Source: a virus (lineage: Duplodnaviria > Heunggongvirae > Uroviricota > Caudoviricetes). Taken from it: a stretch of DNA of 64,000 nucleotides. The stretch lies in the IMG/VR virus record IMGVR_UViG_3300014205_000193, one strand, 5' to 3'. A program made the translations under genes and the position numbers. Shown here one piece after another: positions 45,459-54,329 of the stretch. The first letter of the stretch is position 1, and every line of letters starts with the position of its first letter. The notes beneath the pieces are model-generated. The model was not told where the DNA came from. It saw only the letters and a program-made list of their open reading frames with translations, and ran no database searches.

Positions 45459-48400
45459 ATGTCTGAAGTGACTAAGACGGTTAATCAAGTGTTGGCTGCC
45501 AGAGTATCTCAGGCGGCCGTTGACGATGCAGCTTACTTACAAGCAGTAGAAGAGGGTGATCTGTTTACTCTCCAGCAAATGGTCAAAGAGGCTGCCCGTG
45601 GCGCAGGTTATACTATCGGTCCTGTATACCATGGCGGCACTTTCAACTTGGATACTGCCTCCGCCATGAATCCGGGTAGCTATGAAGGCACCATCTTCTT
45701 TGCTGCATCAGAAGCAGACGCTGATTACTTCGGTAGTGGTTCTGATCAGTTCATGGAGCAAGGTAAAGATTATCATATCACACCTGCATATCTCACAGGT
45801 AACATATTTGATGTTGACAATAAAGCACACATAAAACAAGTTGCTTCATGGGCGGAAGACAACGATGTGGAATTAGATGAGATAGAGCAGGGTGACTATA
45901 CTTCTTTTGAAGATACAGGTTTGATACCTTATTTAAAGGAACTAGGTTTCGAAGGTTTTACAACCTACGAAGGAAATGATGGCAAGTCCTATGGCGTGTT
46001 TAACCCGTGGCAGGTTAAATCAGCGGAACCAGTTACATGGGATGATGCTGGTGAAGTGATTCCCCTGTCTAAGAGATTCAATAAGAGTACAACGGATGTA
46101 CGGGCAATGAAGACGCCTAACCAAGTGTTGGCTGCCAGAGTATCTCAGGCGGATATAGGCGACCGCATCAGCAAGTTTTGGATAACTCCTGACGGAGAAA
46201 TTATTGATGTGCATTCAGGGGAGGAGCATATTGTTGAGGCGCTTCGCCGAGGCTGGGCAGAGTTGCCCGAAGATCTGGCATTAGCTAAAGATATGGTAGA
46301 GGAAGACGGTAACGAATTCGATTATAATAATGTTGATTGGCGAGATTCATACCAAGATTATATGGAGCAGGTATGGAGTGACCTACTCTCTAAAGGGTAT
46401 GTGCGTGGTGGCCGCAGCTACCAGGCTGCATACATTATGTGTTCACATGCTGCTACCGCTGCTGCAAAGTCGGCCACTGCTTCTATTATTAAAGACTATA
46501 TCGCACAGGACATTCCGGTGCAGGTAGCAATAGATAGTTCAGATTGGATCATTACTAATAAGATAGAGTTGGGTGCGTTTTTAAGAGACAGCCATCTGAC
46601 CGCCGCAGCCAAGCAACTTGGCAGTAAGAAGCGGAAGTCTGTTAGTAAAGTGTTGACTCGTATTTTACTATATCTCCCCGAAGAGCTTTACCAAGCTATC
46701 CAAACATTTCCTACGGCAGATGCTTTTGTTAGTAAAATAGAATCACAAGATGGGGTATTGGTTAAGGCTTTTCCAATAGAACAACTAGATTTAACAACAG
46801 CATTCGCCCAACAAGAGTTGGCAGATGCTAAAACAGATTATGCCGCCGGCTATGCGCGTAAATCGAAAGACCCAGTAAGAATATTTTTAAAAGCAGATAC
46901 CAATACTTACGAGATGATTGATGGCTATCATAGGTTATATGCCACACAAGAACAAAATAAAGATACAATATCGGCTACTGTAGAAGTGTCCGGCATGGGT
47001 AAGAGCTTACATAGCCTATATCAGGCTGTTATGAGTGTTACAGCTGGTAAGAAGCGGAAGTCTGTTAATGAGGTACTGGCCGCCCGCATTGATTCAGATG
47101 AGGATAAACTCCAGCAGCTCAAGAACATGGCTGCATTATATGCCTCCGCTCCTGACTTCATTAAATCCTTCTATAAAGATGATTGGTCCGACCAGATTGC
47201 CTTCGGGTATATTAATGGTACACAGCCCGTAGACCCGAAGCTGCTCAAGATAAAGTGGCACGACGATTGGCGCAATGCCGACCCCTTCGATGTTCCTGTA
47301 GACCAGACACCACCTATTGAGGTTGTGTATGAGAAGAGTGCCTTATATGTAGAAGACGGCCACCATAGACTAAAGTCAGCCTTGAAGCAGGACGCCCCTT
47401 CTGTTTGGATAGATCTCACAATAAAGCAGTCCCCATTTACCGCACTGCCTGTGGGTGGTGACGCGGATTTAAAAAACGTATGGGAAGAAGTTCATGGCGT
47501 TAAGAAGACCGCAGACCAGGTGCTGAGCAGCCGCCTCACAGCCGCTGTTTATGATGCTTATTCTGATGGCTGGCTTGCTCCTGATGGGACATTTTATCAT
47601 ATCGATGGTGACCATGCTATTTGGGCGTGGCAGGAGAGGGTCAGGGGATTATCGAAGTGGGCAGAATACAGTAATATGGATGAGGATAGTGATGAGTTTT
47701 CCGATTTTATAGATGACTTCCGAGACGACATTTTTAATGATATGTATGACCACAATTATGTCCGCATCACAAATACGGGGCGTACTGTGACTATAGGTGG
47801 AGAGCTTACACCAAAGGCTTGTAAATTCTTATTAGGTAAACTAAGTGATTTATTTAGCTTAGATAATTCTGTGGAAGTAGAAGTTGGCGATGAGTTAATA
47901 CATGCACCTCTTCAAGACCGCCCAGCTTTCGGGGCGCTGCTTCGGCGGCTGAGAGAGGAAGCTGGATTGGAGGTGCAGGGGATGAAGAGTATTAATCAAG
48001 TGCTGAGCAGCCGGGTAAGTAATATGTCGGATAGGCTGAAACGATTGTATGAACGCCGTGGCGAGAATCCAGACGGGACTATCAATGAGTCCCTGTTAAC
48101 TCCTGTGGCGGCCGGGGTTTCTCTGGCAAAAAGATCAAGCAAGCAAACAGACTCCCCAGAGTTCAAAGCCTGGTTCGGAGATTCTAAGGTGGTAGATGAA
48201 GACGGGCAGCCGATCGTTGTCTATCACGGTAGCCAAAATCCTGATATGCAGGAGTTTGCCGATGGTCGCGTAGCTTACTTTACAGATAGCCACATCACTG
48301 CGCAGAGCTTTTCCGACCGATCATTTATGGGTGAGTCCTTGTTACCTGGAGAAGTCCCCACAGTATACGCAGCGGTGCTCAAGTTACTTAATCCGCTCGT

Positions 48401-54329: not shown

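Follow-up and report, generated by a model that had tools for sequence, protein, structure and literature searches.

The DNA analyzed here, a 64,000-nt stretch of a tailed phage (the window; IMG/VR record IMGVR_UViG_3300014205_000193, Caudoviricetes), contains a giant open reading frame (ORF) of 2,956 amino acids (aa) in which one small domain recurs five times. The protein is also found on a 236.7-kb metagenome contig, from which the window comes. Alongside the five copies, it holds three ART-PolyVal stretches (Pfam E value, 7e-31), two ParB-like modules, and several unknown modules (Table 1). It is a polyvalent protein as the concept was defined by Iyer et al. (2017; PMC5512222), having at least two domains of disparate biochemical activity (ART-PolyVal, the weakly matched ParB-like modules, and the new domain) and being phage encoded; the window has a phage-type primase, a DnaB-like helicase, other helicases, and an HNH protein. 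The repeated domain is a real and previously undescribed family of phage polyvalent proteins.

Table 1. Features of the giant ORF and their positions in the window
Feature	Residues (aa)	Nucleotides	Strand	Basis
Giant ORF, phage polyvalent effector with all five domain copies	2,956 in all	45459..54329	+	ORF list, translation, Pfam
First of 8 linker helices, K-x-x-N-[EQ]-V-L-[AS]-[AS]-R, at protein N terminus		45474..45516	+	
ART-PolyVal-like domain 1 (approximate bounds)	~22-219	45522..46115	+	BLASTP to P0002 905-1092, E 2e-16
Domain copy 1, with acidic helical insert	239-380	46173..46598	+	hmmsearch, 146 bits
Example junction after copy 1, TAAAKQLGSKKRKS plus linker		46599..46655	+	
Two ParB-like modules, DGYHRL and DGHHRL	~405-527, 545-680	46671..47498	+	Weak: ParBc_2 E 0.029, phrog_1033 E 0.006
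Domain copy 2, most divergent (NYVR; C-terminal DRPAFG)	703-834	47565..47960	+	External-only profile, iE 4e-14
ART-PolyVal domain 2, best Pfam stretch	913-1035	48195..48563	+	Pfam
Domain copy 3, compact form	1239-1345	49173..49493	+	hmmsearch, 110 bits
Domain copy 4	1627-1765	50337..50753	+	hmmsearch, 134 bits
Domain copy 5, compact form	1991-2096	51429..51746	+	
ART-PolyVal domain 3	~2324-2545	52428..53093	+	phrog_8642 E 3e-36; 36% identity to ART-PolyVal domain 2, E 1e-13
Other seven linker helices (starts)	221, 396, 537, 686, 846, 1355, 2110	~46110, 46635, 47047, 47505, 47985, 49503, 51768	+	
Similar T-A-[AGSD] plus dibasic junctions	528, 1037, 1515, 1769, 2103, 2549		+	

Is the repeat real? 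The original prediction, made from the letters and ORF translations alone, had placed five copies of one domain in the giant ORF, and leave-one-out tests, BLASTP, and an external profile all agree with it. A motif search of the ORF found five W-x-x-P-x-G starts, five [GN][FY][IV]R strands, and three NK[IV]ELG endings; together with BLASTP and profiles, it sets the number of copies at exactly five, all on the plus strand. When a hidden Markov model (HMM) built from four copies was used to score the fifth, with 1,000 shuffles as the control, copies 1 to 5 received 63.5, 11.6, 41.0, 36.2, and 40.3 bits, respectively, against shuffle maxima of 4.5 to 7.7 bits (4.5 for copy 2). Pairwise BLASTP linked copies 3 and 5 with an E value of 3e-20 and the pairs 1/3, 1/4, 1/5, and 4/5 with values from 1e-5 to 1e-8; copy 2 was marginal against its siblings. 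A profile built from external relatives only recovered the same five segments, at independent E values (iE) of 1e-29 to 4e-14, and found no sixth copy in the ORF. Chance and compositional artifact are ruled out by the shuffle and external-profile tests, and the alignment, rather than collapsing, stands up to profile comparison.

The finer details of the prediction fared less evenly. The domain core is about 107 aa, and acidic helical inserts stretch copies 1, 2, and 4 to 132 to 142 aa; the proposed length of about 150 aa is an upper bound only. The start given for every copy, W(I/V)(S/T)P(D/E/A)G, fails for copy 2 (WLAPDG) and copy 3 (YISPEG), and the central G(F/Y)(I/V)R strand reads NYVR in copy 2. 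The NK(I/V)ELG ending is present in copies 1, 4, and 5 but is replaced by TKQGLG in copy 3 and DRPAFG in copy 2. The most conserved residue of all, an invariant His about 10 residues past the WxxPxG hairpin, had been overlooked, as had the polyvalent-effector context, the pairing of the His with a conserved Arg, the gelsolin-like fold, and the junction motifs, all described below. As for what the iterated module does, the domain is genuinely iterated as claimed, and the prediction made no choice between a binding or scaffolding module and a repeated enzymatic unit.

Searching with an HMM of the five copies, as had been suggested, was done exhaustively with HMMER against 1.84 billion representatives. 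It returned 134 cluster representatives at an E value of 1e-3 or less, 30 at 1e-10 or less, and 4, including the window protein, at 1e-30 or less. Rescanning the matched proteins yielded 302 domain instances with the signature W-[IVL]-x-P-x-G ... H ... G-[WYF]-[VI]-R. Over these instances, the Trp is conserved in 95%, the Pro in 89%, and the Gly of WxxPxG in 96%; the His is present in 100% (300/300); and the Gly before the aromatic residue, the aromatic residue itself (W/Y/F), and the Arg are conserved in 95%, 95%, and 91%, respectively. The His and Arg are kept in all five window copies. No other polar position is conserved above about 50%. Conservation is poor in the C-terminal half of the domain, the NK-x-ELG motif being kept in only a subset of the family and preceded by a Thr in about 23% of the instances that align there.

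Copy number varies among the related phages, in line with another expectation of the prediction, from 1 to 7 per protein in the rescan and up to at least 8 in one ORF. Eight copies make up the array protein P0011 (1,413 aa), P0013 (562 aa) consists essentially of four, and solo proteins are 115 to 194 aa long. On the contig L005 of a related phage (Logan SRR30949867, positions 10001-24263), the system is divided between two large ORFs with a 383-aa gene between them: the first, 1,420 aa long, has one copy, and the second, which lies two genes downstream and is at least 3,690 aa long, has at least eight, making at least nine altogether. All 10 of the members looked up are metagenomic (JGI, ENA, Logan) and are unnamed or called "hypothetical protein." So far, the domain is found only in metagenomic phage proteins, mostly large mosaic polyvalent effectors but also domain-only arrays and solo proteins. 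One 135-aa protein, P0130, consists only of two N-terminal half-units (WxDPxG...H...GWIRV), from which the first 60 or so residues of the domain may be the minimal functional unit. The solo proteins P0080 and P0103 have a common C-terminal tail, AGTP-x-EWA-x-x-QGP.

The prediction had matched the domain to no described family, and this was borne out: it is invisible to Pfam, PHROGs, and NCBIfam. A Pfam scan of the giant ORF recognized only ART-PolyVal, plus a subthreshold ParB match, and a PHROGs scan gave two unnamed families and a weak ParB match. Among 43 domain instances, there was no consistent Pfam family at an E value of 1 or less. PHROGs matches to the instances were sporadic, weak, and confined to families of unknown function; NCBIfam gave no match, and searches of PDB sequences with both profiles gave nothing below an E value of 0.01. 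In GenBank phages, no relative was found by megablast of the giant ORF or tblastn of copies 1 and 5, and nothing came from word-indexed homologue searches with the 5-sequence and 43-sequence alignments or from a scan of IMG/VR with a single-copy query. A structure search of BFVD gave only weak matches to uncharacterized phage proteins. The best single Pfam match among the 43 instances was that of one member to the PARP14 WWE_1 model (E value, 5e-4), which is intriguing given the neighboring ART domains. Identity with the ADP-ribose-binding WWE domain was nevertheless rejected, as this is one weak match that neither the other members nor the fold search supports.

How did one protein come to carry five such copies? 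No DNA-level similarity was found among them, so they are old paralogues, and recent tandem duplication was rejected. For copies 1, 3, 4, and 5, the most similar copy is in each case found in some other protein and is not a sibling. The closest relatives of copy 1 are in P0002 (46% identity) and P0004 (41%), and the nearest outside relatives of copies 3, 4, and 5 are 39%, 60%, and 44% identical, respectively; copy 2 has no close relative. Copy 4 lies inside aa 1534-1985, a block with 60% identity to P0006, and on L005 the 60%-identical counterpart of these residues is in the first of the two large ORFs. Other segments of the giant ORF are likewise common piecemeal to different proteins. Because their nearer relatives lie elsewhere and they share no DNA similarity, the copies are best described as old, diversified subfamilies shuffled as modules. 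At the end of the giant ORF, aa 2850-2956 (54006-54326) are 49% identical to the C termini of the otherwise different proteins P0047 and P0004, and this stretch of about 100 residues may serve as a common tail for anchoring or packaging.

Structure prediction was confident. An AlphaFold2 model of copy 1, from the 5-sequence alignment, had a predicted local distance difference test score (pLDDT) of 88 and a predicted template modeling score (pTM) of 0.82; for copy 5, modeled from 30 sequences, the values were 97 and 0.89. Both models are small alpha/beta domains with the order b1-b2-a1-a2-b3-b4-a3-b5-b6-a4, in which b1 contains the conserved Trp, a1 begins with the invariant His, and b3 begins with the G-[WYF]-[VI]-R motif. 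The predicted fold is a gelsolin-like two-layer sandwich, and the resemblance is one of fold only, because alignment of the family profile with human gelsolin G1 and G2 (hhalign) gave a probability of 0.1%. On this value, true gelsolin homology by sequence was rejected. Relative to gelsolin, villin, and fragmin, including the Asgard proteins ProGel and 2DGel, the phage domain has no sequence or profile similarity, has different signature residues, and occurs in a viral and bacterial context; it also has an extra two-helix element between b2 and b3, which carries the invariant His.

Could the domain still be a true, very distant gelsolin/villin homologue that binds actin-like proteins of the host (MreB, FtsA, or ParM), with the repeats engaging several filament protomers? 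Iteration does resemble gelsolin architecture, and a cytoskeleton-linked domain, YodL, has already been proposed in polyvalent proteins. Against these likenesses stand the hhalign result, the fact that Pfam Gelsolin was not among the matches listed for the 43 members, a match restricted to about two-thirds of the domain, and the absence of a gelsolin counterpart for the His-bearing element. We regard such homology as highly improbable. The models also bear on the idea that the domain has no target of its own and acts structurally (as a spacer, a folding insulator, or a module for packaging), separating effectors or anchoring the polyprotein in the capsid. In line with this idea are a very confident, compact, independently folding predicted structure, a poorly conserved C-terminal half, and regular interspersion among unrelated enzyme modules. 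A spacer would have no need, however, for an invariant His and a conserved Arg and Trp, and the solo proteins, the domain-only arrays, and the strong diversification (rather than homogenization) of the copies speak against it, leaving it quite unlikely.

What company does the domain keep? Its partners in other proteins are ART-PolyVal, a 2H/Acb1-like phosphoesterase, NUDIX, a low-molecular-weight phosphatase, GNAT, a C39 peptidase, thymidylate kinase, and a nucleoside-deoxyribosyltransferase-like domain. These enzymes are of a counterdefense type, which fits the polyvalent-protein concept (PMC5512222). ART-PolyVal is present in 6 of the 8 top-scoring family proteins scanned, the window protein included. 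In the other 43 members scanned, ART was found in 2 and 2H in 8, and most had no recognizable toxin domain. The array protein P0011 is followed directly by a separate ParB_N gene (L007 7698-12604). This adjacency, echoing the fused ParB-like modules of the window, suggests a recurrent link between the domain and ParB. In the window, a 73-nt direct repeat (48126-48198 and 52473-52545; 74% identity) marks the start of ART-PolyVal domains 2 and 3 with the box SKQTDSPEFK[AS]WF, which also opens the ART domains of P0003 and P0005.

A second conspicuous property of the giant ORF is the set of motifs at its domain borders, which bracket all five copies. Their grammar is T-A-[AG] or A-G, then a basic cluster, often followed by an N-[EQ]-V-L-A-A-R helix. 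The linker helix, as x-N-[EQ]-V-L-[AS]-[AS]-R, occurs 8 times against 0.3 expected, and T-A-[AGSD] with a dibasic pair within six residues occurs 7 times against 0.4 expected (maximum of 3 in 500 shuffles). Conservation of the linker extends to DNA: 45474-45516 and 46110-46152 match over 43 nt at 93% identity. Such DNA-conserved linkers, rich in K/R and carrying N-[EQ]-V-L-A-A-R, are also seen at 46624-46655, 47047-47074, 47985-48005, 49503-49538, and 51768-51803, whereas the domains that they separate are not conserved at the DNA level. Two of the linkers are preceded by Met-Lys. Because the exact N-[EQ]-V-L-A-A-R linker is not present two or more times in any other top family protein, the helix is taken to be specific to the lineage of the window; an Ala-rich stretch (T-A-A, Q-A-A, S-A-A) after the last helix of the domain is general in other family proteins. 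The linkers could be cleavage sites, fossil gene starts, or short stretches of homology at which modules are exchanged. The linker DNA that they share would explain how modules move between phages, and the junction motifs, if they are cleavage sites, would yield a testable rule for the division of giant proteins into working units.

Alternatively, the copies could be built-in inhibitors, or "immunity" domains, keeping toxic ART, ParB-like nuclease, and 2H modules inactive in the producer until junction cleavage or ejection. The frequent co-occurrence with ART-PolyVal among the top proteins is compatible with such a role, as is the presence of junction motifs suggestive of separation after synthesis. 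But the scarcity of toxin domains in most scanned members, the existence of tandem-only arrays, and the failure of copy number to track the number of enzyme domains make it very unlikely. An even bolder proposal would join two ideas: that the domain is the first gelsolin-fold relative in the viral and bacterial world, an iterated and diversified binder of actin-like or other filament proteins, and that the giant ORF encodes a polyprotein, which would be cleaved at the T-A-[AG] or A-G plus basic junctions into at least a dozen injected effectors, five of them small gelsolin-like proteins. We consider this combination a long shot.

What function, then, can be postulated for the copies? Our preference, a tentative one held at somewhat less than even confidence, is that they are autonomous, diversified binding modules; we infer binding rather than catalysis. 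We view the giant ORF as a chain of effector units that can be separated, each copy being a small module of its own and not an appendage of the neighboring enzyme, a reading suggested because each copy sits between recurrent junction motifs. Each module would bind, without catalysis, either a target in the host or a small ligand that is phosphorylated or of nucleotide type, through a putative site made up of the conserved Trp of b1, the invariant His with which a1 begins, and strand b3 with its G-[WYF]-[VI]-R motif, with five diverged copies possibly providing five specificities. Binding is favored because the conserved set is small (Trp, His, and Arg plus turn residues), as is usual for a binding pocket rather than for a multiresidue active site, and because the predicted fold is that of a protein-binding domain. 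It is also favored because the domain occurs alone and in pure arrays, is bracketed by junctions, is strongly diversified, and is not basic. The isoelectric points of the domains range from 4.4 to 6.3, with a family median of 5.1, and an acidic to neutral domain argues against nonspecific nucleic-acid binding. This possibility and that of a DNA mimic were both rejected, as the domain is acidic only to the level of the whole protein and is not basic.

The main rival to a binding module is a small enzyme, for example, of a metal-independent phosphoesterase or nuclease type using the His and Arg, iterated with diversified substrate specificity. Iyer et al. used conserved polar residues to flag as potentially enzymatic the large polyvalent-protein-associated domains (LPDs) that they described (PMC5512222), and by that criterion the His and Arg, kept in all five window copies, would qualify. 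There are also precedents for iterated enzymes in polyvalent proteins, among them PBECR and ART domains; one that combines four PBECR domains with ParB has been described (PMC5512222), and a similar ParB pairing is seen in the window ORF and beside P0011. On the other hand, only two polar residues are conserved, neither of them joined by a conserved nucleophile or acid; the Pfam matches listed for the 43 members (E value of 1 or less) include no PBECR or other enzyme family, and no enzyme fold was matched. An enzyme is, on balance, unlikely, though less so than the spacer, inhibitor, and gelsolin-homologue interpretations above.

The case for a binding module faces several difficulties of its own. 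(i) An invariant His with an Arg conserved in 91% also fits a minimal, metal-independent active site, and the invariance is partly a matter of ascertainment, since the motif drives detection. (ii) The module is a candidate binder, and the clustering of Trp, His, and Arg in a pocket is presumed. (iii) The resemblance to gelsolin spans about 74 of 111 residues, at 5 to 16% identity. (iv) No protease domain was found in the giant ORF, and the junctions are putative cleavage sites. (v) No portal or MuF gene is recognizable among the neighbors of the giant ORF. An upstream 531-aa ORF found no support as a portal protein; in the Tunturiibacter phage Tunturi_5, a polyvalent protein bearing ART, without the new domain, adjoins the portal gene. 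By analogy with what is known of polyvalent proteins, the giant-ORF protein would be packaged in the virion and injected. Such proteins are thought to be the first phage proteins delivered into the cell, and many of their domains are counterdefense tools. A confidently folding, iterated domain with an invariant His is in this light a well-defined candidate for a new antidefense binder or enzyme.

Several known systems come close to this one. LPD1 to LPD40 (Iyer et al., 2017) are likewise uncharacterized domains that lie beside ART, ParB-like, and 2H domains, occur in solo forms, and undergo module shuffling. The new domain is iterated far more than is reported of these, up to at least eight copies per ORF, and is set apart from the LPD models held in Pfam only, none of which matched the whole ORF or the 43 instances at an E value of 1 or less. 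Pfam lacks roughly half of these 40 domains. The PBECR plus ParB proteins of the jhp1044 type in Helicobacter prophages likewise combine a small domain, present in several diverged copies, with ParB-like modules in a mosaic effector that rearranges rapidly, and a helix that begins with a conserved His is common to PBECR RNases and the new domain. A PBECR/BECR RNase was rejected, however, as no PBECR was among the 25 Pfam families listed, of 30 matched by the 43 members at an E value of 1 or less (the other 5 by a single member each), and the BECR fold, an N-terminal helix followed by a four- to five-stranded sheet, is not matched. Of the N-terminal-helix His and late-strand Ser/Thr that mark BECR domains, the His is invariant, but a Thr before the NK motif is the minority feature noted above. 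ART-PolyVal domains, iterated up to 12 per protein (PMC5512222) and present three times in the window ORF, share the class of host protein and the logic of iteration within a protein, yet they are unrelated to the new domain in fold and motif, having an H-Y-D active site and NAD+ chemistry. What is novel here is a polyvalent protein with a new, heavily iterated module of predicted gelsolin-like fold and a conspicuous junction grammar.

The surroundings of the giant ORF offer a few further observations. Upstream, the genes for a serine resolvase and, after it, an IS605-type OrfB/TnpB (Cas12f-like) protein (35678-37388) look like an insertion element within the phage genome. A 116-aa gene that starts at the giant ORF stop codon (54329-54679) matches Pfam BubE (PF20137) and phrog_3362. 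Immediately downstream of the giant ORF lies a cluster (55266-59201) of one NUDIX-like and two glycosyltransferase-like genes, which may be a DNA- or nucleotide-sugar-modification module.

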